DNA of 64,000 nucleotides from positions 1,364,001-1,428,000 of the forward strand of contig OZ374558.1 in assembly GCA_977862235.1 (NCBI GenBank), in the 5' to 3' direction. The stretch comes from Dudresnaya verticillata (taxonomy: Eukaryota). Under the pieces are notes generated by a model. That model ran no database searches and was not told the origin of the DNA. It saw only the letters and a list, made by a program, of their open reading frames with translations. The position numbers were made by a program, and so were the translations under genes. This document shows, piece after piece, positions 2,919 through 30,096 of the stretch (within the stretch, counting starts at the first letter, position 1; every line of letters begins with the position of its first letter).

Positions 2919-2935
2919 CACTACAAGTCCATTTC
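2919..2935 (+). repeat. Left TIR of the CACTA element
   Basis: CACTACAAGTCCATTTC; CAATAAA follows at offset 28 at both ends. Confidence 0.93.
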
Positions 2936-4959
2936 CGGGCCAGATCAATAAAGTCCCATAAATGTTATTCAGGGCCGGGCCATACAATTACTGCTGCGGC
3001 GTGATGAAAATTCTGTACAGAAATTATATCCGTATCGGGCCAGACCTAGAAAACAGGACTTAAGCCCCCGATAGATTTGGCGCCACGGCGCAGCCCGTTT
3101 AATCATCTTTGTGCGCCACGTACGTTGCGCTTGCACGATGAAGGAGGTGATCCGGACAGTTAAACCCGTTGTCTCACGTTAACACGTCTACGCCTTTACG
3201 ACATCAGTTGCTCAGTACTGAGACCACCTCAAGCGTTTATCGTATACACCGACTTGACTTTGCTCAGACCAGTAGTATTGCTGTTCTGAACAATTACTGT
3301 GAAGTTCGAGACGCGCTTACATGACATTCTGAAACATGAGCAGTACTGCTCCTGCCCAACGAAGCAGTCGTTCTACAACAATACTGGCATCACTATTCTA
3401 CGATACAATGAATGCGTCAGGTCACCGTTACCATCGTCCGCGCGCGTTGCGTTTGTAGCTCCAGAGTAATGAAAAGTTATAGTTTGCTTTACTTGTAAAC
3501 ATTGGTCATAGTATCCTACCTACGCTAATCGTCAGAATATTCCCGGTACGAAACCGGAAAGATTCGAACAATTGTTCGAACGTTCACGCATGCCCACCTG
3601 ATACCTTTACGGTAGAAGAAACTTTCAACGCTTCATCATCAACACAGATATATGTGCCGTACGGCTCCTTGAAAGCTGCCATGCTCGCGTACGCAAATCG
3701 ATTTTCATCAACTTGAGATTCACATGGTGACGAGACCTCTCAGAGAATGTCAGAGAATGAGGCGGACCGTGGGGTGAAGCTCACTTCGCCGCGCTCGGCT
3801 TGTAGTACGACAGGCTAGCGAGATTGAGCGCAAAGAAAATTTGTCAGATGCGTGGGGTCAGACGCATACGCACGACGATCGTCGTCAATGCGTACGCGTC
3901 TGACCCGTCGCGATCGAACGCTGCATCAGCAAATCTGCCGAAAAGGCGGACTTTCGACATTTCTGTCATCTGATCCTCGAGAACCGCACGTACGTGCGCG
4001 TGCATCGCACAATGCATGCAGCCATAGCAATGGAGAACGCCACGCAAAATGCATAATACGAGCATGCGGTGGCCACGGTTGGGGGTTGTTCTGTCAGTAT
4101 CGATTATTTCTGGACCGTCATTGGCCAGATTTGTATTTCTGAAACGAGCTGCGGTACTGTATGTCCACTGAGCCAGTATAGTGAACTGTACATATCTGTA
4201 AGACGAGATCCCATGATCTCACAGTGTCGAGACTTGAAAAAGATATTTAAATGTCCCATTGCCCAATCAGAGCTCAATGGATTGACATCATTTCAACGCT
4301 TATTGGTCTTCGTGATGCAATGAATATACGCACAGTCAAACGGGGTCTTCCATGTTTAATAAGGGTAAAAACAGTTTGCAGTACTGCACTGTAATCCATG
4401 GTCCCATGCCCACGTGGAGCTCGACTATGCTACCACCATTCGGGGTCTGTATGACCTATACCCTGCACGCGCCTACCATATCAATGAATTTGCTCGTACC
4501 AGCGCTCGTTTTTTTCTCTTCTGAACATCTTTCCTGTACTTTCGAAACTCTCTATTTGTTGGTACAGGCCATACCCCCTTGTAAGTCTCGTCCGATACGT
4601 CTAATGATCTGGAACTGCAGTGGGAGTAAATATCGAAGCTTTTACAGAATAGCTATTGTTCGACTTCCAGTACTGGTCAAGAACAAATACGCATATCTGA
4701 TTTAAATTCCACAGAGCAGAAGAGGTATTAAATTGATATTTATTGAAATACCATGACACCGTGCTTTCGATAGTAATACTGGTAGCTTGCCAAGCTGTAC
4801 AGCTGAGCACAACTTAAGTTACTGAATGCATTCACTGCATGCAGTAACGAGGTACGGATCCGAGGTAAAGAATATTCTCTAAACGAAATGAAATAGCTAC
4901 GCATTAATATTAAGGGGTTGCGCAGCAGATTTACTAGAAACAAATATTTAAGGTTAGCG

Positions 4960-7900
4960 TCAAGCAATTCTTGGTGGGTACCCATTAACGCGTCTTTGGA
5001 AGAACATTTTCCCGCCTTGTAATAAAGTTTCGCAGTGTCTGACCTCCCCTTTATCTGCATCGAACACACAACTCCGTACGGAGTTCTCCCCGTTCTGACA
5101 AAAGTGATACAACGCAACCCTTCGTACGCTGGGATGCAATTGGAGAACACGAAACGACTGAGAACTTAAAGGTTCTTCTATATGAAGAATAGAGTTTCCA
5201 GATGGTTTGCAACGCACGCAAAGCACCCACACACTATCTGGTACCAGAAGTGCACATAAAACAACAAAAAGGTAAGGTTTCGCATCAGGGCTGGTATATG
5301 GTACCAGAAAGGGTCTTCCAATATCTTCAGGACTGAGATATGCTTGAATAACAGTGTTGAAGTAAATGCAATCGAACGCGGCAGGGGTTCCTATTTGCAC
5401 GCCATTGTTTCCAACCCTAATTCTGTTCACCAACTTATAAAGTTGAGGGATAGAACTATCTCCTCGACTGAGCCGTTCAGTGGAAGGATAAAATGCATTC
5501 AGGCTTTTCCAGGTTGATGTAAGGGCGTCCTCTACATCCCTCTCCGGAAGGCAAAGAGCTTTGGCTACATCCTGCGCTGTCGTACGACTTTTGCATATCC
5601 ATTTCGATGATTTCTGTACAGAAAAGTTTCCGGCTCTTCCTTGCTTCCCTATCTGCTTTTCTAGAATGCGGTTAATTTGTCCGCTAATGGCCGCGTCAGC
5701 TTTTGCCAGAATGTCGGAATCCTTCTCCTCGTCGAGCAAATGCACTTCTTCTCCGAGCAGCAGCCTTCGTTCGAAGCGCTTCTTTTGGATTTCGTGTTCA
5801 GGAGAACCGGAAAGTGCTAGCAGTACTGCTAGTCTTCCTTGCCAATCATTCCCCACACAATGATCTATCGCCGAAAGGTGGGAATTTTTCTGGTTGCTTC
5901 TTTGAAGACATCGTTTCAGAGGTTGGTGCGCATACTCAAACACCAACTCCACAAACTCTCTAACATGTCCGAAGGCAGGTATGGAGTGTTCATAGAGTTC
6001 AATTAGACGGTGGAGGTTTGGTTTATCCAGCAGTTTCCTCTTCTCTTCAACCTCTGTACAGAGCTTTTCGACACCTTCCACGTACCGTTTGGAGAGTACT
6101 CTCAACTCCGATATATAACTCATATTACTACCCCGGACGGTATCATAGGCCTTAAACCCATCCAGTTCTTGCTCTGGCCACCAATAAGTGAATGCCACAA
6201 GCCGCTGGAAAAGTTTGAGAAGCTCCAGAGTTCGGTCGTATTCAGTACGGTTTGATCGAATGAAAGCTCTTACTATTGTGAACGCCGGTACCGACACAAC
6301 TAAGACACAGAATGTTCCCGAAAGGCTCATTGTGTTCAGCTTCTTGACATCCTCATTAAATATTCGCTTCTGTTTTATAAGTCTATTTTTAGTGAGACCA
6401 GCACATATTCTGGCGTCCGCCTGTATTCTTAGTTCCTTTGTTGGGAGGCTGAGAAACATCGCTAGCATAATGTTTTTAGACAGTCCTGTCAAGAGATGAT
6501 CTGGTGCCACGAGATTGGAACAGTACGCGTCGAACAGTCCTGTCACGACGGGTTCTCCTTGAACATTCTTCTGAATGCCTTGTCGTGCGTCTTGCAAGGA
6601 GTTTTGGAAATATAGTAGAGGACAGTTACTGTCTGAGGCTTTGGATTGTCGTACGAGTCCAAGGAAGCTTGCATCTGCGTCCGCAATGCCATTTTCTCTA
6701 ATAGACGTATGTCTCTCGCCGTGTCGAAGGAAAGCGGAATTCCTTGCGTGAACCTGTGTTGTATACCCATACCTCGTCCCATCAGCCTGTGATTTAGGGA
6801 GTCTTCGGAAGGAACACAAAGTGCACGGAGCATTTCCAACATGACCGACGACGTCAATCGTGCCCGCGGATGCTGGGTAGTCCGCAACGTACCCAACGAC
6901 GTCGATAAATATTTTGACTGCCACACCGTCCGGTGTGAATCCATCTACTCCTTCTGAAGCTGCCTTAACCAAGTCTGCAACTATGAATCTCAATACCTCA
7001 TTGGATGACACTCCGGGAGGTGTTAAGCTAACTATCCGTACGGATGAAGCTGACCTTCGTGCCTCTGGGGGTAACGAAATGGGGAGCATGTAACAACCTC
7101 CAGCTGACCCTTGAGAGCTCATTGTAACAGACGTTTGAAATTCATCACAATATAAGAGTACTCTATATACAACGTATGGTTGCCCTCCCTTCTGAAGGAT
7201 TCCATGCTTTTTGTTACTGCTCCGACTGGAAGGGAGATTGGGGAACAAACTGGTTCCGGGCACATAGCAGACCCACTCAACAACATGTTGTATTAATTTG
7301 TCCGGCTCTATTGTTACTATCCTGCAATTGGTCTCAGTAAAACTCCGTACGGAGTCCCATCTTATCCAAATGACTGTCTTGGAAGCCTCTCCGTCCTCAT
7401 TTCTCCAGAACCGATGCACAAGAATAGGGAAGACAGATGAGGGCGATTCACACGTATTTTGCTTTGTATTGCGTAGAAGACAACATATGTCTGAAGGGAG
7501 TACCCCCAAGGCAGAATACTCAGTATCACTTCTTGTTCCGGGTCCGGATGCAGAATCTTTTAAACATTCCATCACTTTCTTCTCGCGTTTAGATAAGTGT
7601 GCAAGCTTTACGGACCTTTCAAAGCTTTTTGTTGTCTTTCCATTTGCTCCAACGGACCAGACAGTGACAATGAAAGCTTTAAAGCTGTAACAACTGCCAG
7701 TACTGGACAGCGAGAATCCTGTTTTAAAGGCCGGCCGGGTGTCTGAACAGTTGATATAGACCTTGTCTCCTGGGACGCATCGTACGACGTGCCCATCATG
7801 TTCTGCATATACTTGGTCACATGAAAGTAGAACAGCTTCTCTTCTCTGCACCATATCGGAGTACTCCAATTCATTATCCCTCACATTTTCTTGCGGCACC

Positions 7901-8919
7901 GTACTGCAACTAGGTTGCCTCTCTCGGCTTATAAAGTTGGGGAACATCTGTTCGAACAGAGAAGGCGTGCAAACATCCAGCTTTGCCCAAGAACTCGGTA
8001 GGACAATGCGGACGTCTTCTTTCTGTACAGAATTACACGTAAAAATATTACCTTGTGGCCGTCCGACATCATCAGAATCAATAGGTATGGAAGGTATGGA
8101 GTACTCCAGGGTTCCTGGAAGGGTCCCGGATATACCGCTCGGTAGATCCATGGAAACCTGATTCTTGCGAGGCAAGGAGACCAGCAAGCTTTTGGGGAAG
8201 CAGTTTTTCACAATGGTCATGAAGTATCCATGTGCGCGCTTGTAAGGGGGAAGAACAAGTCCGTTCTCACCTGGACATTCAGTACTGAATTCTTCTATGA
8301 GATCCTTCAAAAAATCATACTGTTCAACTGTGAATCGTACGCTTCCTACTACACACAATATAGCAGTAAGATGAAGAGGGCTCTTCCATAAGGAAAGAAG
8401 CTTTTTCATTTTTCTCAGATATATTGTCCTGTTAGTAAAAGACTCGACGTTCAGAGAATGAAGTACTTCTGTCTCAGGTAGCGTGCTCTCTATGTCGTCA
8501 GACGGAAACGAGGGGTACTCGACCTCATGCTCAGGGGCTGTGGTGAACATCTCCTCTGCAAGGTTCTCAAAACGACTGAAAGTCGTACCATGGTTTGTGG
8601 TGGAGTCCTCCTGAAAAACACTTTCCCTATCGCCTCCAGCTCGCAATTCATTTGAGGAAGCCCGTACGGGTTCTCCTGTAAGTCCTTCATGCCATGGTAT
8701 GTTATCGCGATCTGCAGATGTGGGTTCTTGTTCGCGAACGTCGCAAACATCCAAGTTCGTCGTTGCGTCCAATTCACGTCGCGGTCCACTACGCCGATCG
8801 GAACTTTGAGAGTAGTGTTGCCTTGTTTGAAGGATAGAGGACATCTGCCGATGTTGCTGTTCCCATGAAGACTGTACAGTTCTTCTTCTTCTCTTCTTTG
8901 AATTTGGAGAGGGATTCAT
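4960..8919 (-). CDS. CACTA-type DDE transposase, 1319 aa, uninterrupted
   Basis: Motifs LLYCDEF, VADYPA, GHVGNAPCTLC, APDHLLTGL, KPNLHRL...IPAFG...FEYAHQPLK in the order typical of CACTA/Plavaka-like transposases; N-terminal basic NLS-like stretch. Confidence 0.88.
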   Translation of the reverse strand: MNPSPNSKKRRRRTVQSSWEQQHRQMSSILQTRQHYSQSSDRRSGPRRELDATTNLDVCDVREQEPTSADRDNIPWHEGLTGEPVRASSNELRAGGDRESVFQEDSTTNHGTTFSRFENLAEEMFTTAPEHEVEYPSFPSDDIESTLPETEVLHSLNVESFTNRTIYLRKMKKLLSLWKSPLHLTAILCVVGSVRFTVEQYDFLKDLIEEFSTECPGENGLVLPPYKRAHGYFMTIVKNCFPKSLLVSLPRKNQVSMDLPSGISGTLPGTLEYSIPSIPIDSDDVGRPQGNIFTCNSVQKEDVRIVLPSSWAKLDVCTPSLFEQMFPNFISRERQPSCSTVPQENVRDNELEYSDMVQRREAVLLSCDQVYAEHDGHVVRCVPGDKVYINCSDTRPAFKTGFSLSSTGSCYSFKAFIVTVWSVGANGKTTKSFERSVKLAHLSKREKKVMECLKDSASGPGTRSDTEYSALGVLPSDICCLLRNTKQNTCESPSSVFPILVHRFWRNEDGEASKTVIWIRWDSVRSFTETNCRIVTIEPDKLIQHVVEWVCYVPGTSLFPNLPSSRSSNKKHGILQKGGQPYVVYRVLLYCDEFQTSVTMSSQGSAGGCYMLPISLPPEARRSASSVRIVSLTPPGVSSNEVLRFIVADLVKAASEGVDGFTPDGVAVKIFIDVVGYVADYPASAGTIDVVGHVGNAPCTLCSFRRLPKSQADGTRYGYTTQVHARNSAFLRHGERHTSIRENGIADADASFLGLVRQSKASDSNCPLLYFQNSLQDARQGIQKNVQGEPVVTGLFDAYCSNLVAPDHLLTGLSKNIMLAMFLSLPTKELRIQADARICAGLTKNRLIKQKRIFNEDVKKLNTMSLSGTFCVLVVSVPAFTIVRAFIRSNRTEYDRTLELLKLFQRLVAFTYWWPEQELDGFKAYDTVRGSNMSYISELRVLSKRYVEGVEKLCTEVEEKRKLLDKPNLHRLIELYEHSIPAFGHVREFVELVFEYAHQPLKRCLQRSNQKNSHLSAIDHCVGNDWQGRLAVLLALSGSPEHEIQKKRFERRLLLGEEVHLLDEEKDSDILAKADAAISGQINRILEKQIGKQGRAGNFSVQKSSKWICKSRTTAQDVAKALCLPERDVEDALTSTWKSLNAFYPSTERLSRGDSSIPQLYKLVNRIRVGNNGVQIGTPAAFDCIYFNTVIQAYLSPEDIGRPFLVPYTSPDAKPYLFVVLCALLVPDSVWVLCVRCKPSGNSILHIEEPLSSQSFRVLQLHPSVRRVALYHFCQNGENSVRSCVFDADKGEVRHCETLLQGGKMFFQRRVNGYPPRIA

Positions 8920-11061
8920 TGTGAATACTTCCCACTTAGTGTGTTTAGAAATTTAGAAAGGGATTACTTAGGAATTGAGTGCATAAGTGGACAGTGTTTG
9001 ATATTCAGCACGTCTCACTCAATTCAATAACCTTCGTACGAAGATGTGCAGTATTGCAAGCATAATTTTCCTTGTGAACAAATATAGAGTTAAGATCCGT
9101 TTGAAGTTGTTCTCCTGACTGGGACAGTGCTGTACCCTGTTGCGTAATCGGCGTGTCGTGTTCGTAAACACTACTACTATTGTCAAGATCTGAGCCACAC
9201 ATATGTATGTGTTTTTAGTATGAACAATAGATTATGCTTCTAATTTATGAACTATGTTACATTTGAATGGGATGAAGCAGGATCTAATGCAATTTACCTA
9301 GATCTATGGTATGTTTGTACTGTGATAATACCGAGTATCGATTGGATTCTTTGTTCTCGTTTCAGAATTTGCGAACGTACGTTGCTGTGTGTTTAAATAG
9401 GAAGTCCTATTTATTAGTAAAACAATTTCAGTCTGTTATCATAGCCCAAGGTACAAATAGAGAGAGTGTCAATCAAGAGTTCTATCCATTAAGTTTAGTG
9501 GTTCAGATATATATATCTGGCAGTTTTGAAACGGTGCAGCAGGGTACCCTACACATCGAGTCCTCGGGTCGGGCCAGCAACAGGTCCGACCTGTGGATAT
9601 ATATCCAAATGCACTATTGTATTGAGCTGTACAGCTTCTTCAAAGATGAATGGATTATTCATTAAAAATAAGCACTTAGATCCTCATCATGCCGTTAACA
9701 AGAAATATTTCGCACGAGGATGTCTCTGTGATGTACAGCGTAGTCCCTGTGCATCACGGGACAGGACTGTGGCGGAGGCAAGTTTCGAAACAATAGTTAC
9801 ACTGGCGTTCAGTACTGCAGTGCTGGGCTATTATATTTGAACGTTCATGAACGTTCAAATATAATAGCCCAGTGGGATAATGAAGGCACAAAAGTATCGC
9901 TCTGGAGCAATAGGATTAATGGTCCGCGACGACATGTCGCTCACGACAATTGCCGTTATGCAGCCGGAAAGGATCTCGAGATTGTGATGCTATTACATGG
10001 CTACAAGATGATGACCGTACGGCTCAATCAGCCGTTGCGAGCACTCGCATGTAATTTGATTGGCCGGCCTTAGGAAAAATCTTCTTTGTGCCCTTGTGCA
10101 ACGTGCATCACAGATCTCCATATTCGGCTCGAGTAGCGTTCGCAGCTGCCCAGATATATGTACATACGTGTCAATAAGCATATGCTCATATGTTCAGTGT
10201 GTGGGCCCAGGCCGACTGAACTGGAATTGATTCCTTCCGTCACCTTCGCAGTGGCCCGAACAACAGTACTGCTGCTATTGGGCCAGATCCAGCGGCCCAC
10301 TCCGACGCACCGCGGTGCGAGATCTCGCTGCGGAAACGTGCACACTTCTGGCCCTAGTGGCGCCATGGCCATGTATATTTTGTTTATTATTCTCGCGGAT
10401 TGGTACTGCTATGAGCCGAACATGTGAGCCGCACGGCCACGCACGCGACCTCGTATCTTTCGAGGACCATGTGGCCTGGGAAACCGCAGAGGGTGCCTGA
10501 AGCTGCAGCTCGCCATGCGCCATGGCGCCAGCATGCACTGCTGAACCGGCTCCGGAAGCCGCGATAGACGTTCAACGTCCGGAGTTCCGAACCTCGCCAA
10601 GCGACCCGCTACGGCGCTGCTGCGAAACATGTTTCGCCGCCGCTATCATATGATAGCCGATATCGGCGCTCAGCGCCGCAGCCTGTGGCGGCATGTCGAG
10701 CGCGACATGCGTGCACGCGCGGTCGCTCGGGCCAGACCGCCAGTACTGGCGCGATCAGTGTGTCATCGTCGGTCCAAGTGTTCTGGGGCAATTTGATGGC
10801 CTATTTCGGTTTGGCGCGCAATCATGTGTGAGTCTGGGTATTTATCGGATCGACCGGCGCGCTCGCCCCCCTCTCCCTCCCCCAGCATCCACACCACCAC
10901 AACCTGTCGGCTCCCTTGGAGCCCTTCCCTCCCTCGCTACACACTCCTTTCGCTCCTCCCTTACCCTACCGCGGCTGGCCGTGTGTACACGGCCCTGTGT
11001 GCGCGCGCGACGAGACTACTGCGCGCCCCATTCCCGCTGTGTGCCTTCCTGCGCTCTCGCC

Positions 11062-13938
11062 ATGCGCACGCGCTCATCCGAAAAGGCTGACGGGGCGGCG
11101 CCTGCAGCACATGGGACCGGTACCGGTACCCCGTCTGCGCAACCCGCTGGACAGGTACCTGTCGTGACGACACCACAGCAGGATCCTGCACCGCCGCCGT
11201 CTACCTCAGCCTCAGCTCCACGTGCTGCGGACAATCATGCTCATGGAAGCGATGAAATCTCTCCCGCAGTCGCCTTGCAGAGTGGTCCTTCTCAGACACC
11301 TGCCGGTACCGGCGAGGCAGATCAGTTTTTTTCTTCGGGCGCTGTGTTCAAGTTGCAGCCGGCTCTCCTGTCCGGGAAGCACGACTGGAACCTAGAGCCT
11401 TCGACCAATAACAGCTACTGGCAGTTGGTGGAGTCGTCTATCCCTTCCTCTAGACGGGGTGATATGAACGCGTACGCGTACAGTGCTGCGAATAAGGGGG
11501 TCGCCATTGCGAAGGATGCCTTCGCGAAGCTGAACAGCATCCGTTCGCTGTTCGCTTGTCCGCAAACCCTGAAATGCGACCGTACGTTCGCCAAGGAAGC
11601 GAAGGATGTGCCGTACCTCGATGAAATGGACATCTACCTTAGCGATGAGAGCTTGGATGACGGGGCCCTGTCCGCATCAATGGTGCCGATTACCAAACAC
11701 AGGTTTGGGGGAAGATGGTTCCACGCTTTCAATTGCCGTCCGGCGCTATGTCGTGAGAACTACTATCGCCGTCGCTTCAATCTTTGGATCCCACTGGGCC
11801 GTTGCGAGGGTCCATATCTCAGTGTTGAAGAAAAGAAGGACACATACCCTACGGCCCAAGGCAAGGTCGCTCACATGCAGCACCCAGCGGCGTTACCGGT
11901 ACCGGTTCCTTTTGCTGTGTTCTACTTCTTCAAGGAGCTAAAGGCTGCTGGAGAGGAGTAAAACACGAGTCGCCTCAAGCGTTTGCTGTTTGCTATTCAG
12001 GTCGAGTACTCGACGCTTGTACTTCATGTGTGGTGCAGCGAGGCTCTGCGTGGTTCTCGGATGTATATCATGAATGACAGTACTGTCGACCGCATTGAGG
12101 AGACGATGCAAGGTGTCGAGACGATCGACGATGTCCCTACCAAGGGCATCGTCGAGATGATTCGCGAGGTGAACAAGTTTGCGGCTGGTTGGCACAACGA
12201 AATGGTCTTCTCAGAAGAGCCCCGAGATGACCCTTCCTTCTTTGTTTGGTCTGAGCGTGGAAAGGTGGGTATCGACAAAAGCCGTCCATCTGGCCAGAAG
12301 TACATCATGAGTTACTACAACAGAAAAATTGTAACCAGTACTGGTGCAATTGTTCCGGACGAATACAATCGTTCGACGCGAGCTGGAATAGGCGTCGGAA
12401 GCTCGCGAGGTGCCGGTGCAGCAAACCCAGGAGGGAGGGATTATGGAGGAGGAGATCGCGGAGGCTACAATAGAGGCTACAATAGAGACGTCATGGATAG
12501 GCGTATCTCCGAGTATGAGCTTCGTCAGTTTCCGGGTCTCCAAGACACCCTAAGGGAACATAATGCATTCAGTCATGGCCAGCCGACCGTACGGTCCGTC
12601 ATCAACATCCTTATCCAGGACTACACCTACCTGCGCGGAAGGGTGTCAGAGCTGGAAGGGCGCCCGCGTGAGTACTCAGCTCAAGGCCTCCTCAACTCTA
12701 TCGTGGAAAGGTTTGTTCCGCCCACCACTCGCGGGCGACTGCCAGCTCCCTCAGCAAACAGGGACAGTGAGCAGCATGGATACGATCGCGGTTACGGAAG
12801 TGGCAGAACTGGCGAGGATATAGGTGGCTATCATGGTTACAGTGGACCTGCAGATGGCTATAGAGGATCGTACGATCGTCATTATGGGGAGCGTCATGGG
12901 ACCCAGCAGCCGTATCGCAGTCAAGGTTACTACAATTCTGGAGACTACAACTCCAGAGGTTATAAGTACGATGACGGGTACAATGCCGGTACCGGCGACG
13001 GATATGGTTACAGTGGTGGATACAATGGTGACGAAAACCGCATGGACCCGTATCACTCGCACAAAGATTACGGGAGTTCTTCGCGAGCTGTTACTGGTCA
13101 ATACGGTCACGCAGGTTCCTCGTACGAAGAACCGACGCAATATCACGCGCCGCAGGAACAGCCGATGGATACCAGTGATCCTTACCGAAGCTCGCGTTAT
13201 CCTGCTTCCCGTGCCCCAGCTGTCCGTGCGCCTACCTTTCAGGAGGCTTTCAAGCGTAACGGCACATCTCAAGCAGGACCTAGTGGCTCAGATGAAGCCG
13301 GTCCGAGCAGCTCAGCTCAAGTTGCTCCCAGTACTGGGACGCATGTCGAGGAGGAAGTGCTAGACCTTCGTCCCCCGGAGACCCGCACTCGCCCAGGCAC
13401 GCCGATTCGAGAGCCCGAGCGTGGCCCTGGCAGAAATGGTCCTGTACAGGAATCTGAATTGCGCCGCACAATTACGCCGTACGTTGAGAAGGTTTCGGAA
13501 CGGGAGAATGGTGGTGCCGGTACCTGCAAGGGACCTAAGCAAACTTCCACGCCTAGTCAGCCGTCTCCCTTCGCCCCAACCTCGCACCAGAAAGCCTTGA
13601 GGGATCGCCTTGCTCGGGAGAGTGCGAGCGCTGAAAAGTCTCGAGGCAATGAAGCCGTACGGCATGTGAAGGAGGGCTCGGGCGTGCCCGGCCCTGCCCG
13701 CGTGCAGTCTTCAATTGATGATGGAGAGGTTGCATCCAAAGAGCTGGCTTCCAGCACCGCTGCAAATAAGAAGAGTAGTCGTCTGTCTGGCTCCCCCGCT
13801 ACGAAGAAGCTCCGGTCCGACGAGGGTCCATCAGCCTCCTTATGTGCTGATGGACCCGGCGCTGCTCCGCCTACCGACAAGACTAAAGCGAACCGTACGG
13901 TTGGCAAGGGAAGGACAGAGGAATCTGATGAGAGTTGA
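11062..13938 (+). pseudogene. CACTA cargo ORF2, ~958 codons with one in-frame TAA (11959-11961); globular domain, coiled coil, G/Y/R-rich and S/P-rich tails
   Basis: Listed ORFs 10693-11961 and 11983-13938 are in the same frame, separated by one stop; ATG 11062 follows a pyrimidine-rich leader. Confidence 0.75.
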
Positions 13939-14225
13939 GTACCAATTCTGTGCTTGAGCTTGTGGAATCGTTCGCTACTCGAGTGGCAAGTACAAGGTCT
14001 TGTGTGCTACATGGAGCTCATTCTAGAATTCATGTAGGATATAGGTCTCCCCGGTGCCAGAAAGTGAACTGTGACCTTGAGTGGCACCATAGTTGCAATA
14101 TTGCTGTTGTAGTACAGCTATTGGTATGGACCAATGGTAGTAAATGTACGAGATTGATGTGTTTTGTGTTTGAAAATTATCTTTTTATTAACACGAAGCG
14201 TGCGTTTCAGCAAGCAGCCAGAACG

Positions 14226-14665
14226 TGCGGGCGTACGCCATTACTTGCATACAACCTAACACAATTATGTTTACCGTGTTGTATCGTATCTATCCCTGCT
14301 GACGAATGTAAACTTCGTAGTACTACGTTTGTCTCCAGATTCAATCTGCAACTGCAATCTGTATAGTTGCATCTGTATAAGCATTGAATACATCACTAAA
14401 ATCGCGTAGGATTGTTGTAGCACATCGTTGACGTATGTTAACATAGTAGTACTATAGTAAATGTATATACTTTTGGATCCAGAATCCACGGTTGTATCTG
14501 CATGAACATGCAGATAACTCACGCTTCGTGAGTTTAAGAATACAGCCAGCACTTGCGGGCGTACGCCATTACTTTAAGTTGCGTACAACCTAACACAGCT
14601 ATGTTTGTCCCGTTGTGTCGTACCTATCCCCGGTGACGTATGTAAAAATCGTAGTACTACGTTTC
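14226..14665. repeat. Diverged ~110-bp direct repeat (14226-14330 and 14554-14663) in the ORF2/ORF3 convergent intergenic region
   Basis: Both copies read TGCGGGCGTACGCCATTACTT...TACAACCTAACACA...TCGTAGTACTACGTTT. Confidence 0.85.
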
Positions 14666-16050
14666 TTGCGTGAAGCAATTTTATTCATCGCACGGGACTG
14701 CGCTAGGTCGTCGTCGATGTACATATATGTAAACATCGTAGTTTGTCGGAAGAATGCGAAGAACAGCACGTTCGCGCTTGTTGGGAGGGAGCAGTACATG
14801 TACAGATCCGCTAGTTTTCCATCAAGTTGAGATGATTGGTTTAGGAATGATCCTACCAAGATGCATATGCATCTTAGATCATATGATCTGTCCACTCCAC
14901 AAGACCCTCAAGAAGGAGTATACTCAGATGAGTGTCTTCATAACACGCATAACCTGCTTGCATAAGCACGAATGCAAAACGCATTACATTTGACAGACAC
15001 GCGTTACACAGAACAGCTTTTGTGCTCGCAGAGCCCGTAGCATTTCGCGCAGATCGGGGTCCTGCTGCATTCCACCAGTCTTGATGACGACTGCGACATG
15101 GGCGTCGCGGTATCTCACAAAATCCTGCGGGACAGGGGGAGCTCGCCACCAGGTTGCCGCTTCACGGTTGCCATCTCTACACGCGCTAGCCGTGCTACGG
15201 TCATGCCCGCGCTATAGCGCGCTATATATATATCGGTTATAGCGACCTATAGGTTTGTCTTCCACTCGACCGACATCCCAACCTGTGGGGCTTGGCAAAA
15301 GGATTTCCCGGCGACGAACTGCGCGCTTGGCCGACGATAGCGATGGGAAGAGGTGCAGAAAGTGGACGTGTTACGGACTTCGTACGAAGTAAATGCCAAT
15401 CTACAACAATGGCACATTTGAATAGAAGTGGATAAATAGCAAACGGGAATATCCAATTAATGTACAACTGAAACTTCTTTCCCTAACGTGCGTACGCACT
15501 GACCCATTTCTGTGAGACCCAAATAGTTCAACAGACAACAGATAAATAATCCTATGTATGATACTAGCATCCTTACGGATTACATCCTTACGGATAATGG
15601 CATATGCCATTCTAGAATTTAGAAAGCCCTGTCGCAGTGCTATGTAGATGTAGTGAGAACTTCAGAAATACATGTAAGAACAGCAATTGACTGCTGCGGC
15701 TGCAGCTCTGCAGTCGGTCAATTTCTGTTCTTCTAAAGTTATTAATAATCACATAAAACTCCGTACGGATGGGTATCGATCGGTCTTCGAAGGCAACCAT
15801 CAAACTGGAATGCGTGTATATAGCATTATTATATGATTACTTTTAAATCGAATAAAACTAGAGATGTTGAAAAGGTCCAGTAGGAAACCATACGCGCGAA
15901 GTAGCGCTACTTATCAGCTTGAGGGTTTTAGGGATCGCTAACTTTGAAAGTATTTAATGGTACCATTCCTCGCATGTGTGCGTACGCGACTGATTGTGTA
16001 TACGTATCCAATTAAAGTACTTTACCTGTTGAGTATCAATATATTTATTG

Positions 16051-18681
16051 TTATAGACTGGCTATTCCATTGTCCCATTGCTCCTCAATATTATTGCCAG
16101 AGTTACATTCCCCCATATCCGCCTCCCTGTCCTCCTCCCTTAAATCCACTCCAACTTCTTCCTCGTTCAGCCTTTTGAACTCCTTTTCGTGCATGCGTAC
16201 GCATTTTCTTTCCAAAATATTCTTCTGGTTGTACGTTCCAGGGAGCAAATCCTGCAAAGAGAGGCTGTCCAGCACAATCTTGCATGGGTCGCAGAATCGA
16301 TTACTCACAAAGCTTGTTGAGTCCAGATTCTTTTGCACTATCTCCTTGATGGTGTGACCCAGAATAACAACACATCGCAATGCAGACTTCTGCGTACGCA
16401 TGAAAGCAGTTTCACCGGATACCCGGCAATATTCGACACAAATGTTCATTGCGACCTGTACCATGTGAAAAGAGCGACGGATTGTTCTTTTCTCTCCACC
16501 AGAGTGCTTCCTGTTGTTCCCGGTACCGGAAACAACATAAACGTCATACTCGCTCAGCAGAACGAAATCCTCATACTCTTCTAAAATGTTTGAGAAGAGC
16601 TTGGAGTTGTAGCTATCAGCCTGCAGGATTTTGGATTCGTCCGAATCTATTGAGCAAATCTCAGTGTCGGGGATTGCACTGATTTGCAGATCAGTACGAA
16701 CAGAGCCTTTCCCACTGTTATCCGTACGGATAGCTTCAGAGAGTGCACCATTTTCCCTCGCCTTGCCCTCCGAACTGGGTCCATTCCAAAATGCAATACT
16801 GGATTGCTGGTCTTGTAACTCAGTACTGAGTGCTTTCCAGTTCACAAGCATGAACCCGATGTTTTGGAAGAAGGACAATTTCACAGCATCACGGGATGAA
16901 TGCAGCTGGGTACCCAGTTTCCGATAGACCCTAAGTGCCCCGTGGATTGCCACTTCGTCGGAAGTTGGGTTCTCCGAAGGGATGAGTTCACGAGATGCCC
17001 TGGACTTCTCCAACTGTGCCCTGGCGTGTAGAATGTGGTCCACATTCACAGCTCCAGACTTCAACCAATCCGGACGGATTATTTTTGCCTGTGGATGCCC
17101 TTGCAGGTGTTCACCTCCAGAATAATCAGAAGGGCCTTCCAATTTGACTTGAGATGTTAAAGACGGATTAGCAGCGGAGGATCAAGTTTGGTCTTTGGCT
17201 CGTACGAGACTAAATGGACCATTGGATTTCGGGTCACAAGTTTGGTCTTTGGCTCGTACGAGACCAAATGGACCATTGGACTTCGGGTCACGCCCAGACG
17301 TCTGTCCGGAACCCTTTCCTCCTGGACAGGACCCTTTTGTGACCGGCGACTCCATAAAGATCCCGAACGGGTCTCGAAATATGTTGAAGAATAGGTTTTG
17401 AACAACAGTAAACTTGAACTGGCCATGATGCCTGCCTATTCCTTCCTCCCATTGCTTTCTCGTGGCAGCAGGCTGCAAACTGAACATCAAGGCTCCCAGA
17501 CCAGCTGCACCACGGCTTCCCACTGAAAGTTTCGTGGAGGGCACCGTATCGTTACAGTTTGTACGGGATCCATCAGGTTTCGAAGAACTTCGAAACAAAT
17601 TGCAGACCAGTACTGGTACATTAAACGACATAATACGAGAAATAAGCATTGGATTGACAACAATATCAATGGAAGGCGTCAATGCATCTAGTTTCTTCTT
17701 CATATCAGACTTTGTTGACTTTCGGAAGGTTTTGCCGGTACCGGTTGCACCTTGGCTTCTGGACAGCAGCTGAACATGCCCACGAAGATCTTTCACTTGA
17801 TCCTGAAGGGAACTTACAAGTGATACAATATTTTGGTTTGCGTGCAGGACCTTGTCAGTGGAATCAGCCAGATCCTTCTTCAACTCCGTACGGAGTGCCT
17901 CCAGAAGTCTAGACTGCGCGTTCGACAATGCTGTGACGATTTCAATATCATCGCCTGCTATTCCCTTCTTCGAAACCGTAGCTCTTCTCTTCACGGCTTC
18001 CATCTGTGCCTGTACAGGCCCTTTGAGTGGTGCGTAGTAGTCATCAGGGCGTGGAGGTCCAAGCGGTGCTTTGACAAAAAGGTCTATTTCTTCAAGCTCT
18101 TCGTCTTGATTCACACCGGACGGTGTGATTCTAGAATCAGGATTCCCTTCTTTAGAAAGCTGAGCTCTCGGCCTGAAAGGAGGACTTAAAAGAGGAGTCT
18201 TGGTGTTGTACAACAACCTTCTCTTCTTTGACGGCAACGGTCTTCCATCTGTGTCCCGAGATGCAGTACTGCCTGGGCTTCTGTTAGGTCGTTCCGCAGA
18301 CACTCTTTTGCGATAAGCGAGGAGAGGTGCTACTGGAGTATCCAGATTGGAAGAGTCCGGGCTATTCTTCTCGTTGGAAAGGGCTGCCGAATGACGGGGA
18401 GGCGTCTCCGGAATTTTCTCAAGTGCTTCGAGACCAAGTTTTTCCTTGCTCCGTCCGGAGTCGTCTAATCCTTCTCGATTAGTGCCCTTCAGTTTCCTCG
18501 CTGTTCGAGGAGAAGTGCGGGTACCCTTGACCGTGGATCGGGGTGATACAGTGGATGCATCAGGGGCTGCAGACGCAGTCTCCCTCCTTCTCGATTCAGC
18601 ACGAGCCATTGCCTGAGCCTGAGACGCGGCCTTGTACCTAGCCATTTTGTCAGACGTACGTCTTTTCCGTGAAGGAGCCAT
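16051..18681 (-). pseudogene. CACTA cargo ORF3, ~876 codons with one in-frame TGA (17182-17184); basic NLS-like motifs, coiled coil, unknown function
   Basis: Listed ORFs 17182-18744 and 16051-17142 are in one frame with only that stop between them; ATG 18681 gives MAPSRKRR. Confidence 0.72.
17184..17291. repeat. 54-bp in-frame tandem duplication in ORF3
   Basis: Two copies of AAGTTTGGTCTTTGGCTCGTACGAGAC...CGGGTCAC with 2 mismatches. Confidence 0.95.
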
Positions 18682-19723
18682 AATGCTAGAATGAGTTGTG
18701 TGCGCGTCTGATTCACAGTCTGTAACCCCGTTGTCGTCCGTCACAGCGGAGCCAGAACATACACAAAGGTAAGGAAGACTGTATTTGACTATGAACGTCT
18801 TCCCGTATGAATGATCCAGACAGGCGCAGTGGGCATCCAGTACGGGTCCAGAATCTTATACATGATTGAGAGGAAGATATTGGTGCATGCAGAGCGCGCC
18901 AATAAAGAAAATCCAGTTCACACCTAATAGACAAGCGCTGATCTTCGTGTTTCACAAACCGTTTCGCTTTTGCGCGAGCACATAGTTAGTAAAGCAGTAC
19001 TGATTTCGATCTGAACAGACACAATGGCGGGAAAGCATATGCAGACGTAGGTCTATGGGCAATGCTGTGGTATCGCAATACTATGTTTACATTGGAGAGC
19101 TTCACTTGAGCCACCCGTACGGGTGGTTCAGAGCGTATGGGATACCCGGAGATGATCCAATGAGTTTCAGTTCCTCGGTTATAATGCGACAGTGTCTGCA
19201 ATAGATTCATGTATAGGCCCAAGAACAATGATATGGCAGATTTACAAGGAATATAATTATTGTTTTACAATCCTGAAAAGGCTGTTCGGGAACAACGTGT
19301 CTGTAGGAGCGGGAGAAGAGGGTGTAACTCACGCTGTTACCGAGGCTTCTGTACAGAAATATCTCCTAATGAAACCAATGAAACCAACGAATCACTGGTC
19401 TGGCCCGATAAAATCATTCTTTGAGGAAAAGGTGAGCGAGACACTTGCAATTACGTGTCACTATCTCTTTCCATCCGGAGCTCCTGCAGGAAATGCGTAC
19501 GCAATGCTTTGCTAATGTGTTAGTGTAGCACAGTAATGTACATTAGAATACCCGTCGCGAGAGCGCAGGGCTCCATGGAGCGACTGCAGTCGCGCGACTC
19601 TGGCGTGTATCTTATGCACGCCCACAATCTACTCAACGCACTAGCAGAAGCAATTGTCGACCGTACGGTCATTCGCGAGCAACACCTGATCAAGTATCAT
19701 CCCATCGAGGCAACTTTCTCAAG

Positions 19724-21381
19724 ATGAGTTAAAGGCCTCGGCGAACCACATCCTCTGACCCCTTTGTGGTACCACGGAGAGGGGAGTTTATTGAAGTCCT
19801 TTGGACACTTGACCAGATCCCCGAATCCCCGGAATCCTGGTGCATTGCTGAGGTTCTGCACATATTTGAAGACTACGCGAACGGTTGCATTGGAAGGGGT
19901 TTAATCAGATATACGAGGACCCAGTACTGGGAGGAGCAAGTTCAGAACGTCACATTCCATTGCGACTACATCCTTCGGGTCTTCGACGAGGACGCGAACA
20001 CGTCCGACCAAATCAACGGTACCGTTGAACTAAACAAAGGTTCGTGCGGAAGAGAGATTCGGGAGGGGCATATGAGGCGGAGGAGGACCCAAGATTGTTT
20101 TGGAGGTACACTGCGCGTACCTATCCGTCTGATGAGCAGGATGCTGATGAATCCGACGAGGACTGGTACGAGACAAGGACTTCTGTACAGAAGTCAAAAT
20201 GTGGATCCATGCTTCGAAGCGTCCGCGGCACAAAGCTCAATGCAGGCATACTAGACAGTGGCACTGAAGTGAAGAGGCTTCGGGAAGCATATGCTACAAT
20301 TGCTGTACAGCAAGAAAAGTTGAAAGTGATGATGTTGGACCATTCCAAGAGACTTCATGATATTGAAAGCGCCCATGGGCAGGATAAGTACCTGTACAGG
20401 TCTAGTATTGCTCCGAGCCCATCGCAGCTCCGTTCGCGAGTACTCGCGCACTTACGACATAAACTCGCAGTAAGACTACAAGCTCCAATCAAACCGCTCC
20501 CACACGTACTGGGAAAGCGGTCTCTAAAGATGAAGGATAGTTGCGAGGAAAGGTTGCCATTCAGCGCCTCTTTTGTTGACGGAGTACTCCGTGGTGTAAT
20601 TAAGGTAAGGGTGGAATGTGAGCTTGCTGAATTCGAAGTCATCGCCCGCAGTATGAGATCGAGAGGCGAAGGCGTTCGTCTTCGATTCTACCCTGCATTT
20701 TCCGAGACACAGGTTCCATTGCTGAATAGCGAATGGTTTTCCATTGTCTTTCCGTGTTTCGCAGATCTATGTGCACAAATTGGAATCGAATCCGTCTCGG
20801 ATAGATTGGAGATGCTCCGTAAGTGCGGTACCGCATCCGGGAAGGACCTGCTTCGAATTCTCCGAAGTTACTTCTACCATGAAGACCGCAAAAAGCCAGC
20901 GATATTATATGTTGCTGCATCACTGCCACCGAGGGATTCGGACGCTTCCCCGGTACCGGGGAGTGACGGAAGCGCCAGGGCTATCCTCAGCGATGACGGG
21001 CAAAACAGTCCTATGTATGAGTCGTACGACATACCTGTGCTTCACCGCGAAACCCGTCAGTGGAATAAGGAAGAAGGACGCTTTCTTTCCAGATTAACTT
21101 TGCATATGGAGAAGGAGCAGAGGCCGTCCGGAAAACTCATCCGTACGGAAAGAGCAGAGGAGGCTTTCATGGTTACTTGGCGACGCTCTCCTGAAGCGTC
21201 GGCAAGAGTATGGTCTCGAACACTTGTCAGTACTGACTGTGTATTAGGAACGCTGGAGATATCTCTTCCTTTTGTACAAACTACCGGAATCAAGCTCTGT
21301 GCTGAGTTTGGAGGGCTCGCAAACGATGACGTGCTACGCGGCGCGTGCTGCCTACACAGCTCAGCGACGTCGCTGCACTAG
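19724..21381 (+). pseudogene. CACTA cargo ORF4: Tudor/Agenet-like N-terminus, coiled coil, unknown C-terminal domain; TAA at codon 3 and a frameshift near 20045
   Basis: ATG AGT TAA in frame with ORF 19766-20254 (RGEFIEVLW...WCIAEV...LIRY), which overlaps ORF 20044-21381. Confidence 0.65.
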
Positions 21382-21669
21382 TACTAGATTAGTATAGCAG
21401 TAGCTGTAAAGCTCTTACAAACATGTCCAACATGCATGTTGCGTAAATCAGCGTACCCTTGCGAGTGAATTTGTGCGCGCATGCCCACGCGCGTACGCGC
21501 ATGGGCCCCATGGGGGCGTCCAGTACTACAGCAGGTGATATTGGTCTGGCACGGGTCGAGTATTGTTCCCGCAGCACATTTCTTGCTGGGCCAGACCAAT
21601 GCCCAGTAATGAGAAAATTTTAGAAATAAATGTATTGCCCCAGCGCAGCATTTTTATTGGGGTTTTCCA

Positions 21670-21686
21670 GAAATGGACTTGTAGTG
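21670..21686 (-). repeat. Right TIR of the CACTA element
   Basis: GAAATGGACTTGTAGTG is the exact reverse complement of the left TIR. Confidence 0.93.
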
Positions 21687-22520
21687 TTTTATTTCCTCGC
21701 CATGGGCGTCGATAACCTCGTCGACCGACGGACGGTCGCCTGGAACGGCTCAATCGCCGTTGGCACGAACACGTCATCGACGATTGGTTACAGACGCGCG
21801 CGTGCCACAATGCAGCGCCGCGCACGCCCGACGCACTGTACGGCGCGACGCTGCAGAGCGGATCTGGATGATGCATCGGGATTAACGAGGTGTAAGGGAA
21901 TTTACTGTCAGGTTGGCCCGAATCCCGATCAAATCCGGATCCGACATCCAGATCGAACATCGGGATCCGCTGAAAGGGAAATACACTTGTAATACGGTGC
22001 CAATCGCGATCCGAATCCGCATCGCCTACAGCACCGGACGAGTACGTCTGCAAGACGTACGCCCCGGCGCACGGCGGCTGCATTGTCCCGGGACGTGTCA
22101 GACGCACGCCCAAGCGACACGCGTCCCGGGTTTCCGCGCACTACGTCATGCAGCCGCCGCACCGCGGCAACACAGCATTACTTAGCTACCCCGTCTAGGA
22201 CGTAACAGTAAAGCCCCGGCAAGCCGGTTTGGGTCTAGACGTCCCTTCCGCGACAGCGCGCACCCTACCGCTGCCCGGAAGCATAAGCGTCTACCTATCC
22301 GTGTTTCCACGTTCCTAACCGTTGTTAACGTGTTTCCTTTTGGGTTTTTTGCCCCTTTTATCCACTCGCTCTGGGTATTTACAGTCCGCCCTAGGCGTGT
22401 TCAACCTGCTCTACCAAGTTCGCTATTAGCGGCTACCCACCGGGCTCCCGAACGGCCCTGAGGTGTTCTCCGTCTTCAGCACGACGTTTGCACGACAGTA
22501 CACGCGGCGTCGCTAGTTAA

Positions 22521-26490: not shown

Positions 26491-27139
26491 CTCGCTTACG
26501 TGTACCCTCTCCTCCACTCAGGATCCCAGTAGTAAACGACACAAAAACTCTCAATCCAGGGGATCTCTTCGTGCTTCACACGCGTGGCAAATAGCAATCA
26601 TGCATTTGCAGTGCTCCTTCCAAGGGTTCAACGCGTTACGGCAGGCCATGTCAGGGGCTACATCTGTTTATGGTTGAATTGTGAAGCAAGAGAATAGACA
26701 ATTACGGCAGAATACCGCATTTGGTTAGTAGCCTACTACATTTGCTCGTGTGGTGTGTATTACTTGAAGGCGAGAGGAGAGTTGAAGTCCAAAGTCGGGA
26801 TATGTCAAACATGAGCCGGCGTTGATTTCGAGCAGAAATCAGAAGGTTTGCAAAGGCAGCGAGCTTTCCTCGCCGCCGACTCTTTCTTGGTCTCTCCCTT
26901 GAAGCTGACGCTTGACTGGATTGCTGACCGGCCCCTTATGGCGGCAGTCGCCATTTGGAAGAAATAAAGTGACGCTCTCCGACATGCGTCCCGCACGGCT
27001 GTCAAGGCAAGAGTGAAAAAATCCTCAGCGTCCGGGCACAGCCTGTACGTAAAACAAGTCAACCGCAGTTTCAGTGTCACAGTTTTCAAACTTCGAAGAC
27101 TGCTCTACTCTTCTCGATGCTTTTTCCATTGTACTCACT

Positions 27140-28711
27140 ATGACCTCTTTTTCCCCATTCCACTCCCGATACACAGCCATTGTGCTTCTCTGCGTTGTGG
27201 CATCTTCCCAGAGTTGCACCTCTGCGCACAAGACGGGAACGCTGACGGAGACCAAGTTTTCAATCAATGAAGAATTCATTCTTACAAACGAAGCCATCGA
27301 CGTTGCAGAGCTTATTGAGAAGGTGATTAAAGAAGAGCCCCCTTCTATGGATGGAGTTGATGCAAGGGGCGATGCAAGCGATAGATCTCTGTTAGTACAA
27401 ACTAGGCAAGAGCAAGCCTTGAGCAAGCAGAAAAAGATGAGAAGAAGGTTGAGGAGAAAGTTCCGGAATTGGGCAAGGAAATATCGTAGAGCAGAAAGGC
27501 GGAAGATTAAGAGAGGAAAAGTAGATCAGGCTTGTCTTATCAACGACTACGAAGAGCGTCATGGTTGCTGCGAATTGAAAATTCGTGTCGAGGACGAAAG
27601 GTATGAAAGGAAGACAGGGAAGGCGCCGTTGGTGAAGTTTGGGAAAAAGGTTGCCTTCTGTGAGAAAGTTACTGAGGAGCTGTTCAACTCGTTGACAGAG
27701 GAGAGCATCCATCTGCCGGCTGACGACGAGAATAAACTCGTCTGTGACCTGAAGGAAATGGTAGCTCTGTTCCCACCAGATCTTCAGCCTGTCGCCGCGT
27801 TTTCTGTGAAGGCGTCTGCGCTCAGCTCCGGAAATGTTACGACACAAGTCGAATCGACGACGCGAAAGTCAGTAGAAGAGAAAAGGCAGCGCTACAAGGC
27901 CAAGCTGAAGAAATCGCAGAAGCGCAGCGAAGCGAGAGCGAAAAGGAGGGAACAAGCTCGTCGCGAGCATAGGGAATACAGGATACATCGTATCCACAAT
28001 AGTAGGCTGGCAGGGTTCTTGAGTACCATGACAAAACGATCGAAGCTAAAGCATAGAAAGGCGTCTCGACTGGGCGTGGACGTTTTTGACAAGTTTATAG
28101 TCGAGATGAAGAAATTGTACAAAGCCAAGAAGACTGCGGTCTACTTCCATGCTGCAGGGAAGAAATGGAAGACGTGTGCGTTTGTTGAATATAAGACAGC
28201 GTTATCCTCGACATGTTTGGACCTAGAAATCATTGATCCTAATGCCGCAGAGATGTCCCGCCCTCCTATTTGGGGCTGGGAATCTGGAAGAGCAGCCACT
28301 TACAAAACCACCAGTCCAGAAGAGAAGATGGATGCCGTTGATCGCTGGGATTGGTTATTCAATACGTTCAATAATGGCGGTGGCGATGACGGCGGCGACG
28401 GCGCTGACGGCGCTGACGGCGCTGACGGCGTTGACGGCGAAGACGACTATTACGACGAAGACGAAGATGAAGATGAAGATGATGAAGATGATGAAGGTGA
28501 TGATGACGAAGATGACGACGACGACGACGACAACGATGACGACGATGACGACGACGGGACGTCTTCTTCTTACACAAGCATCTACCTTTTCGGATCGCCG
28601 TCTCAATGCTTCACAGTTGATCTGTCGTTCTCGTGCTTCGCAGTGTGTTGCGATACATTGTATTCGTACAGCATATTTTGTTCTACACCTAATCTAAGCT
28701 GCTTCGCATAG
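27140..28711 (+). CDS. Secreted precursor paralog 1 (523 aa, intronless): K/R-rich body, Asp-rich spacer, C-terminal 6-Cys peptide
   Basis: Signal-like AIVLLCVVASS; W-x2-C-(A/G)-(F/W)-(V/I) motif shared with paralogs; ends CFTVDLSFSCFAVCCDTLYSYSIFCSTPNLSCFA. Confidence 0.8.
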   Translation: MTSFSPFHSRYTAIVLLCVVASSQSCTSAHKTGTLTETKFSINEEFILTNEAIDVAELIEKVIKEEPPSMDGVDARGDASDRSLLVQTRQEQALSKQKKMRRRLRRKFRNWARKYRRAERRKIKRGKVDQACLINDYEERHGCCELKIRVEDERYERKTGKAPLVKFGKKVAFCEKVTEELFNSLTEESIHLPADDENKLVCDLKEMVALFPPDLQPVAAFSVKASALSSGNVTTQVESTTRKSVEEKRQRYKAKLKKSQKRSEARAKRREQARREHREYRIHRIHNSRLAGFLSTMTKRSKLKHRKASRLGVDVFDKFIVEMKKLYKAKKTAVYFHAAGKKWKTCAFVEYKTALSSTCLDLEIIDPNAAEMSRPPIWGWESGRAATYKTTSPEEKMDAVDRWDWLFNTFNNGGGDDGGDGADGADGADGVDGEDDYYDEDEDEDEDDEDDEGDDDEDDDDDDDNDDDDDDDGTSSSYTSIYLFGSPSQCFTVDLSFSCFAVCCDTLYSYSIFCSTPNLSCFA

Positions 28712-29466: not shown

Positions 29467-30096
29467 ATGTCGCTCCGAATTGTCCCCCTTGTGTGCGCAC
29501 TCTTTGCATCACTCCTCATCGTTAGTCGTTTTGCAGTAGCAGCTCCAACAGATGAGAAAATGTCTCAGTCGACATTGTACAAACCAACCAGATTATTTTC
29601 CGCCTTTCAGCACATTGTCGAAAGCGTGGATTGGGTTGGTCTTCTCAACTCTGTTTCTCAATACAACTCTGGAAACTACCACAACTTCTTGCACAACGAC
29701 GCCTTCGGAAACTTTTCTGAGCAAATACCCGTCTACAATCCCCCAAGCACAGAGCAAGCGAATGCATTGAAGACCAAGCTGGAAGCATTGGAGCTTCTCG
29801 CCCTCAACGCCTCACTCTCTCCGCAAAACAAAACAGACTGGCAACCATTTGCTTCGGGACTAGTCTTTTCTTTCGGCAATGAAACTGCTGCCATGGCTTA
29901 CCACTGGGAGAGACAGCGGTGGATAACATGTGGCTTTGTCAATCTTACTAGCACTGTCGTAGACAAAAATGAGTCTGTCCGAATGTGTGCTTCAATGCAA
30001 TCTGTTGGTCTCTCACCTCCGACCAGGGCACCTATTGAGGGTCTTGACTACATTCTCCCAGCCTCAGGTTCTTCCTCCAATGACGGTGATGACGAT

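Follow-up and report, generated by a model that had tools for sequence, protein, structure and literature searches.

A probable shared accessory domain in a CACTA transposon and a Gypsy retrotransposon of Dudresnaya verticillata, and the palindromes that it may read

Introduction

A CACTA DNA transposon and a Gypsy LTR retrotransposon lying in the same 64-kb stretch of Dudresnaya verticillata DNA (here called the window) very probably carry homologous accessory proteins, and each element is strewn with short palindromes of its own type. We propose, with a probability of roughly 0.4, that the domain shared by these proteins reads the palindromes of the element that encodes it and keeps that element active, by analogy with VANC. 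Our interest lies in the motifs as much as in the shared gene. A preprint on Bostrychia treats the evasion of silencing by red-algal transposons as an open question (10.1101/2025.02.11.637652), and what antisense ORFs do in LTR elements is described as not established (PMC11963269). Here, an unnamed domain with a confident structural model and no fold match in our searches occurs in class I and class II elements alike, and specific sites that it may bind can be named, so that a direct binding test is possible. The motifs delimit the elements to their termini and differ by family, and they could help in sorting the transposons of these genomes into families and in locating their ends. If they are read by symmetry, nucleic acids would be recognised here in an unusual way.

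Two transposons of different classes in one window

The window consists of nested transposons and a few host genes. The CACTA/EnSpm (Plavaka-like) element occupies positions 2919-21686 (18.8 kb, no strand assigned), contains four long ORFs and ends in 34-bp inverted repeats that start CACTACAAG (2919-2952 and 21653-21686). Its flanks are CTT on the left and TTT on the right, matching at two of three bases; the target duplication expected of CACTA/EnSpm elements is 3 bp. In its size, its four ORFs and its CACTA ends it is similar to the giant Plavaka/EnSpm elements of red algae (10.1101/2025.02.11.637652; PMC6431247); those of the EnSpm type in Chondrus are reported to be 16-20 kb long with 4-5 ORFs (PMC6431247).

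The ORF at 4963-8952 (minus strand, 1330 stop-free codons, 19 palindromes) likely encodes the transposase, as suggested by a sub-threshold match to the Plavaka family PF18759 (E=0.021; 14.5 bits, under the cut-off of 26.3), which is the sole Pfam match among the long ORFs of this element. ORF2 (11062-13938, plus strand) has 958 codons, one TAA (11959-11961) and 16 CACTA-type palindromes, and runs from an N-terminal low-complexity part through the shared domain and a Gly/Tyr/Arg-rich stretch to a Ser/Pro/Ala-rich tail. The GC-rich region 5' of it (10300-10750, no strand assigned), likely a promoter, holds a cluster of about ten palindromes, most of them not centred on GTAC. ORF3 (16054-18855, minus strand, one internal stop) and ORF4 (19733-21378, plus strand, two overlapping frames) are candidate palindrome readers, and neither has a credible family in Pfam, PHROGs or the PDB sequences. 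The PAG2 domains, methylase PF01555 and SET PF00856, are absent from all long ORFs of the CACTA element in Pfam searches at E up to 10.

The retrotransposon, Gypsy B (37789-51158, minus strand), has gag-like ORFs, RT, RNase H and integrase in Ty3/Gypsy order between two LTRs (37789-38698 and 50249-51158) that are 98% identical. No target duplication was seen around it; its 5' LTR adjoins another LTR at 51159. Both host elements had been named as such in a preliminary description of the window, and we agree with these assignments. On the strand opposite to gag-pol, between integrase and the 3' LTR, lies an antisense ORF (39239-41540, plus strand), in which the shared domain (about 39410-40430) is followed by a low-complexity tail. 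This copy is broken by frame changes near 39518 and 39979 and by stops at 40322 and 41147. Its leader (38901-39238, plus strand) contains a 100-bp tandem repeat and, with 11 motif copies, is where motifs are densest in the element.

Several further features of the CACTA element were observed. A perfect 50-base palindrome lies between the transposase ORF and ORF2 (9823-9872), and directly 3' of ORF2 a sequence is duplicated at an interval of about 330 bases (14192-14345 and 14520-14679), with a GTAC palindrome in each copy. The start of ORF4 (19733-20098) has no match in Pfam, the PDB or PHROGs; by eye, it resembles a Tudor-type barrel. The element lies close to the beginning of an LTR that is related to the Gypsy B LTRs, and its flanks (2896-2918 and 21687-22417) align in order with that LTR.

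Comparison of ORF2 with the Gypsy antisense ORF

The preliminary description had aligned the two proteins by eye in three blocks. The blocks are indeed found where it placed them (starting at 11755, 11893 and 12001 in ORF2 and at 39808, 39946 and 40025 in the Gypsy ORF), and the spacing from the block 1 Pro to the block 2 Pro is 39 residues in both proteins, as it had counted. Low-complexity tails are present in both, although that of ORF2 differs by its Gly/Tyr/Arg-rich stretch. The pairwise alignment itself does not exceed chance: its score was reached by 115 of 2000 shuffles for the region originally picked and, when the whole domain was compared, by 158 of 1000; in these shuffles the second Gypsy frame change was placed at about 40020, some 40 bases too far.

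To the family profile, ORF2 is visible. A 160-residue piece of the Gypsy ORF has at least 174 relatives at E up to 0.001 in a full HMMER search; family analyses use 150 of them, and the profile contains no window sequence. ORF2 scores 15.1 bits against it (0/3000 shuffles), in the register of the original alignment. The match covers residues 88-430, and when the window was cut into 750 six-frame pieces, only those of the Gypsy ORF scored better (E=4e-4). Profiles made from half of the family all found it (8/8, each at 0/1000 shuffles), with the signal in columns upstream of the seed.

The core of the shared domain in ORF2 (11488-12096, plus strand; residues 143-345) contains an N block (143-190), blocks 1-2 (231-293) and block 3 (307-345), and these ungapped blocks are collinear with the family. 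The N block, which had escaped the preliminary description, scores 20.8 bits (0/2000 shuffles), and among about 127,700 placements its position in ORF2 is second only to that in the Gypsy ORF. Residues 231-293 form a 63-residue ungapped run that scores 30.1 bits, where shuffles average -8.8 (0/2000), so that blocks 1 and 2 of the original alignment are strong; block 3 keeps its register, is weak alone (21/2000) and falls outside the top six placements in the window. Two more C-terminal blocks are not significant, and the C-terminal part of ORF2 alone scores -0.3 bits (125/1000 shuffles). At 34 conserved columns ORF2 is identical in 12 and conservative in 6, with an overall identity of 12-19%. 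A structural model of ORF2 shows the same helix order as the family, with block pLDDT values of 84-93 over most of residues 61-260 of the modelled piece, and is partly circular because the family alignment was supplied, with no control. The TAA of ORF2 falls between blocks 2 and 3. An intron spanning this stop was considered and rejected: the GT-AG candidate (11958-12000) is 43 bases long, out of frame and deletes the start of block 3.

Could the match be a coincidence that the eye selected and that a profile, built from the same family, then simply recovered? The pairwise scores are not significant, none of the 150 relatives matches ORF2 singly (best E=0.12), HHalign of ORF2 against the family gives a probability of just 2-3% (E=0.015-0.023; 1/120 shuffles), and unrelated PDB chains reach 13-15 bits with the family profile. 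Set against this are the three collinear blocks, one of them new, the 30.1 bits of the 63-residue run and the agreement of all eight half-profiles, and we regard chance as very improbable. Judged on these sequence comparisons, CACTA ORF2 and the Gypsy antisense ORF are very probably homologous. The domain is the only coding similarity that we found between the two elements; none was found for gag or pol.

Family and predicted fold of the shared domain

The domain is spanned by 51 of the 150 relatives, with a median identity of 31%. It is about 340 residues long and predicted to be all helical, is basic in 36 of the 51 members and has near-invariant Arg, Trp and Tyr residues. Among 30 relatives that we looked up, one is named, BWQ96_10156 of Gracilariopsis chorda; with three further near-identical copies, it makes four copies in total, on four contigs of differing size. 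Our provisional label of a Gypsy family is based on the sequences of Gypsy B in this window and these four copies. Word-based protein searches found no close relatives of ORF2, and locus searches of metagenomes, viral contigs and prokaryote genomes yielded no DNA; the same word-based search was also empty for the first Gypsy piece, though the next piece has 174 relatives, a known miss.

An AlphaFold2 model of the family is helical and confident (pLDDT 92.8, pTM 0.90). Foldseek searches against the PDB and viral sets returned no match at E up to 0.001, and the best hits of fold searches with VIA had Z scores of 2.1 (rmsd 5.2, 117 residues aligned) and 3.7 (rmsd 5.4, 114 aligned). The absence of a fold match is not proof of a new fold. 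Neither Pfam, PHROGs nor the PDB sequences offered a credible family for the domain, and all 51 spanning relatives lack a credible Pfam family, in line with the preliminary description, which had recognised none. A match to UHRF1 (E=0.09-0.26) was taken as chance, and the ESM Atlas gave scores below 0.9 or no result. The family is not described in the literature that we searched; Repbase Reports and the Bostrychia Table S6 and journal version, which lay outside this search, could list its ORFs.

Only six of 39 family tails match a nuclear-signal pattern. Residues 556-700 of ORF2 (12727-13161) contain 16 YG/GY pairs, with Gly at 20% and Tyr at 15%, compared with at most 8% Tyr in the family tails (n=39); this composition is like that of RNA-binding low-complexity regions.

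Age and route of the sharing

The preliminary description had inferred an exchange of the gene between class I and class II elements. The homology fits this, provided that the event was an old one. Family members share 17-57% identity among themselves and 12-19% with ORF2, and in a quick tree the ORF2 branch has a length of 6.4 changes per column and is not sister to the Gypsy B ORF; this tree carries a long-branch warning and names no donor. So distant a sequence points to old sharing rather than a recent Gypsy insert. A Gypsy fragment within the CACTA element was sought with tblastn, blastn and tblastx, all of which were empty, and ORF2 contains 16 CACTA motifs and no Gypsy motifs. Since it bears the CACTA motif at the density of the element as a whole, ORF2 is a long-term resident, and this residency removes what we regard as the main refuter named in the preliminary description, namely that a Gypsy fragment had simply been inserted; no Gypsy remnant was found there. 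Its other refuters did not apply either, as the profile match is significant and Pfam searches gave no family.

The third-position GC of the ORF2 domain (63.5%) is higher than that of the transposase (43.5%) and nearer to the Gypsy genes, which hints at a foreign origin or at different expression. The domain may also have reached the elements by way of a host gene, as in the case of the plant mobile domain. At its most extreme, the domain would be a host gene family captured separately by both elements, ORF2 deriving from a host paralogue, with no exchange between transposons. ORF2 does lie far outside the sampled family and within a GC-rich island, and the capture of the plant mobile domain by MULEs is a described precedent (PMC5418596). 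The four near-identical G. chorda copies on four contigs are what is expected of a repeat, however, and separate capture seems to us quite improbable. It concerns origin only and can coexist with our preferred reading of function.

Element-wide palindromic motifs

The CACTA element contains 94 GTAC-centred perfect palindromes of at least 10 bp, distributed from end to end, where about 1.0 is expected. Gypsy B contains 138 sites of the form CG-XY-NNN-Y'X'-CG, compared with about 12 expected, and the count is unchanged between LTR ends set at 38675/51135 and the true ends at 38698/51158. There are no Gypsy-type sites in the CACTA element and one CACTA-type site in Gypsy B. Both motif classes were picked after viewing the data, but they are 10- to 90-fold in excess and also come out on top when classes are scanned without bias.

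Arm sequences differ from site to site, while the two arms of a site remain complementary. Perfect 12-mer palindromes number 96 in the CACTA element against 4.8 expected. Of its 167 GTAC sites, 94 have at least three paired flanking bases; arm positions 1-4 are paired at 122, 124, 111 and 93 sites, compared with 43-50 expected from position frequencies, and chance level is reached from position 7. Similarly, among 280 CG-N7-CG sites in Gypsy B, the inner positions are paired at 180 and 175 sites versus 80 and 93 expected. In both motifs pairing drops sharply past four positions. The 94 CACTA sites use 43 different 3-base arms, and their eight commonest halves occur in 42 symmetric and 2 mixed combinations. 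Controls with non-complementary mirror symmetry gave 1 and 6 sites, and G-T wobble pairs show no excess.

The motifs run through genes. Compared with synonymous-codon shuffles, the CACTA motif occurs 19 times versus 0.5 in the transposase and 16 times versus 0.7 in ORF2, with an excess in every ORF, and in the main ORFs both motifs exceed 500 such shuffles, which rules out codon periodicity as their source. Motif density is alike in coding and non-coding DNA, length is fixed at 11-12 bp, and the CACTA motif ceases at the element termini. CACTA sites are more evenly spaced than random (mean 199 bases, CV 0.74 versus 0.98, p=0.002); those of Gypsy B are not (p=0.20). A Copia piece (3.2 kb, cut by the window end) and the three host ORFs tested show no motif excess, and both motifs are nearly absent from the Copia piece. 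In related LTRs the arms are kept where the spacer has changed, with two compensatory changes. Our literature search, with the exclusions given above for the family, found no report of element-wide palindromes with variable arms; in maize Sirevirus LTRs, palindromes are described as restricted to the cis-regulatory region (PMC4728375).

From these observations, selection for a protein probably maintains the sites. An alternative is that they are a mutational footprint, with one arm copied onto the other at a nicked or modified core, perhaps by an enzyme of the element, in which case the shared gene would be an unrelated accessory or that very enzyme. Strict symmetry combined with free sequence (43 arms among 94 sites; 42 symmetric versus 2 mixed) is not what a simple dimer would select, and 5 of 17 differences between the two Gypsy B LTRs fall in motif arms (p=0.016, a post hoc test). 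The like density in coding and non-coding DNA, the even CACTA spacing and the fixed length nevertheless argue for selection, as do arms conserved at homologous places in diverged LTRs, and we consider a footprint unlikely.

Other symmetric sequences were seen alongside the two main motifs. The CACTA element has 71 further perfect 10-mers, centred on ATAT, CATG and other sequences, and these cluster in inter-ORF spacers that are poor in GTAC sites. The partial, related elements Gypsy A (1-2918) and Gypsy C (52101-56250), whose 3' regions lie outside the window, carry a third motif, CCG-NNN-CGG, at 15 versus 1.3 and 29 versus 2.4 expected sites. Both Gypsy B LTRs contain a cluster of GATCCGGAT-like palindromes (38430-38490 and 50890-50950), and related LTRs carry the cluster too. 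Five of the 11 motifs in the 5' LTR of Gypsy B are broken in the 3' LTR and none in reverse; three of the breaks are CpG transitions. These sites may mutate faster or be methylated.

A candidate reader of the palindromes

We predict that the reader of the palindromes is the shared domain, for which we see a little short of an even chance. The preliminary description had suggested a role in countering host silencing; the motifs, on which it is silent, are circumstantial support for such a role and provide possible targets for an accessory protein that acts on its own element. In the proposed mechanism, the domain would bind the symmetric sites of its own element, probably as small hairpins; each site would be read as one hairpin or symmetric unit, the two halves not being recognised independently. 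The element would thereby mark itself as self, and the disordered tail of the protein would recruit host factors so that the element stays expressed. The outcome would be anti-silencing, more likely directed against a histone mark or RNA decay than against CG methylation. A role in CG demethylation of the VANC kind is doubtful because neither element is CpG-depleted (observed/expected 0.99 and 1.31). H3K27me3 is cited as the transposon silencing mark in Cyanidioschyzon (10.1101/2025.02.11.637652).

The link between domain and motif comes from two elements in one window, and the geometries of their motifs differ. While it is conceivable that the homology is real and something else reads the palindromes, we think this somewhat unlikely. 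The reader could then be the transposase, ORF3 or ORF4 in the CACTA element, where three other proteins are candidates, Gag or integrase in Gypsy B, or a host protein, and the domain would have another job such as RNA handling or the binding of host proteins. In favour of this, the motifs differ between the elements. On the gag-pol strand, the spacers of Gypsy B sites are rich in A (163/396 bases compared with 108/396 in non-symmetric controls, p=5e-5), which hints at single-strand reading and fits hairpins in genomic RNA. There are also described parallels: Spm TnpA and transposases act on motifs of their own elements (10.64898/2026.08.24.746577), and Plavaka PAG3 has been proposed to bind inverted repeats (10.1101/2025.02.11.637652). 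Yet a different reader would require a rare feature to arise twice, in exactly the two elements that share a gene. The densest motif cluster in Gypsy B is the tandem repeat immediately 5' of the antisense ORF, at its start, and plain RNA stability would favour the G-T wobble pairs that are not in excess.

It is tempting to speculate further that the shared domain provides portable self-marking to red-algal transposons of both classes, a protein of new fold reading a symmetry code. Such a code, equally tentative, would consist of palindromes across the whole element, genes included, whose arms may have any sequence as long as they pair, and whose geometry is set per family so that each protein serves its own family. 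If so, an element recognised by symmetry could carry sites along its whole length without any repeated sequence that the host could target, and with its coding capacity intact.

Comparison with known systems

The closest likeness is to VANC of the Arabidopsis VANDAL elements, which are Mutator-like: an accessory transposon gene acts on family-specific short motifs in its own element, with tandem repeats (PMC5735166; PMC10398659). Self-directed action is likely here as well. The VANC target motif lies in tandem repeats (PMC5735166), as in the leader of the antisense ORF. VANC motifs are, however, described as fixed 8-9-mers in non-coding DNA (PMC5735166), in contrast to variable-arm palindromes through all ORFs, and VANC is reported from DNA transposons, whereas the domain described here occurs in both classes. 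Pfam searches found neither of the VANC domains, DUF1985 and DUF287, in ORF2 or in any of 51 relatives.

TnpA of plant Spm/CACTA elements offers another parallel: it is the second protein of a CACTA element, and it activates elements of its own family by way of a motif specific to that family (10.64898/2026.08.24.746577). It is described as having a tandem HTH and fixed terminal motifs (10.64898/2026.08.24.746577); our sites are internal, and the fold matches of our domain include none above Z 3.7, in a list that could miss an HTH. The shared domain likely works in the manner of VANC or TnpA and does not appear to belong to either, as their domains were not found in these searches.

The plant mobile domain and the PAG genes are precedents for accessory genes that are shared across classes. 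The plant mobile domain (MAIN/MAIL1) occurs in extra ORFs of Gypsy elements and in DNA transposons, and an anti-silencing use has been suggested for it (PMC5418596); it is also present in host genes and in fusions with MULE transposases, and that account describes no dispersed motif (PMC5418596). The TRP28 (PF04195) ORFs of plant Retand Gypsy elements are also antisense; they lie between pol and the 3' LTR with tandem repeats close by, are predicted to bind DNA, and are described as limited to flowering plants (PMC11963269). Pfam gave no match to the plant mobile domain or PF04195 in ORF2 or 51 family members. In red algae, the accessory genes PAG1-3 are reported to move among transposon families, and Plavaka elements have tandem inverted-repeat arrays beside PAG3 (10.1101/2025.02.11.637652), as opposed to the element-wide sites seen here. 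Accessory genes are also shared among retroelements in bdelloids (PMC5408684), and extra enzymes are known in Gypsy elements (PMC9289625).

Elsewhere in the window, the ORFs at 29209-30291 and 34514-35431 are apparent paralogues with signal-peptide-like starts and no Pfam family, and the ORF at 27053-28708, which has no assigned family, ends in an acidic tail.
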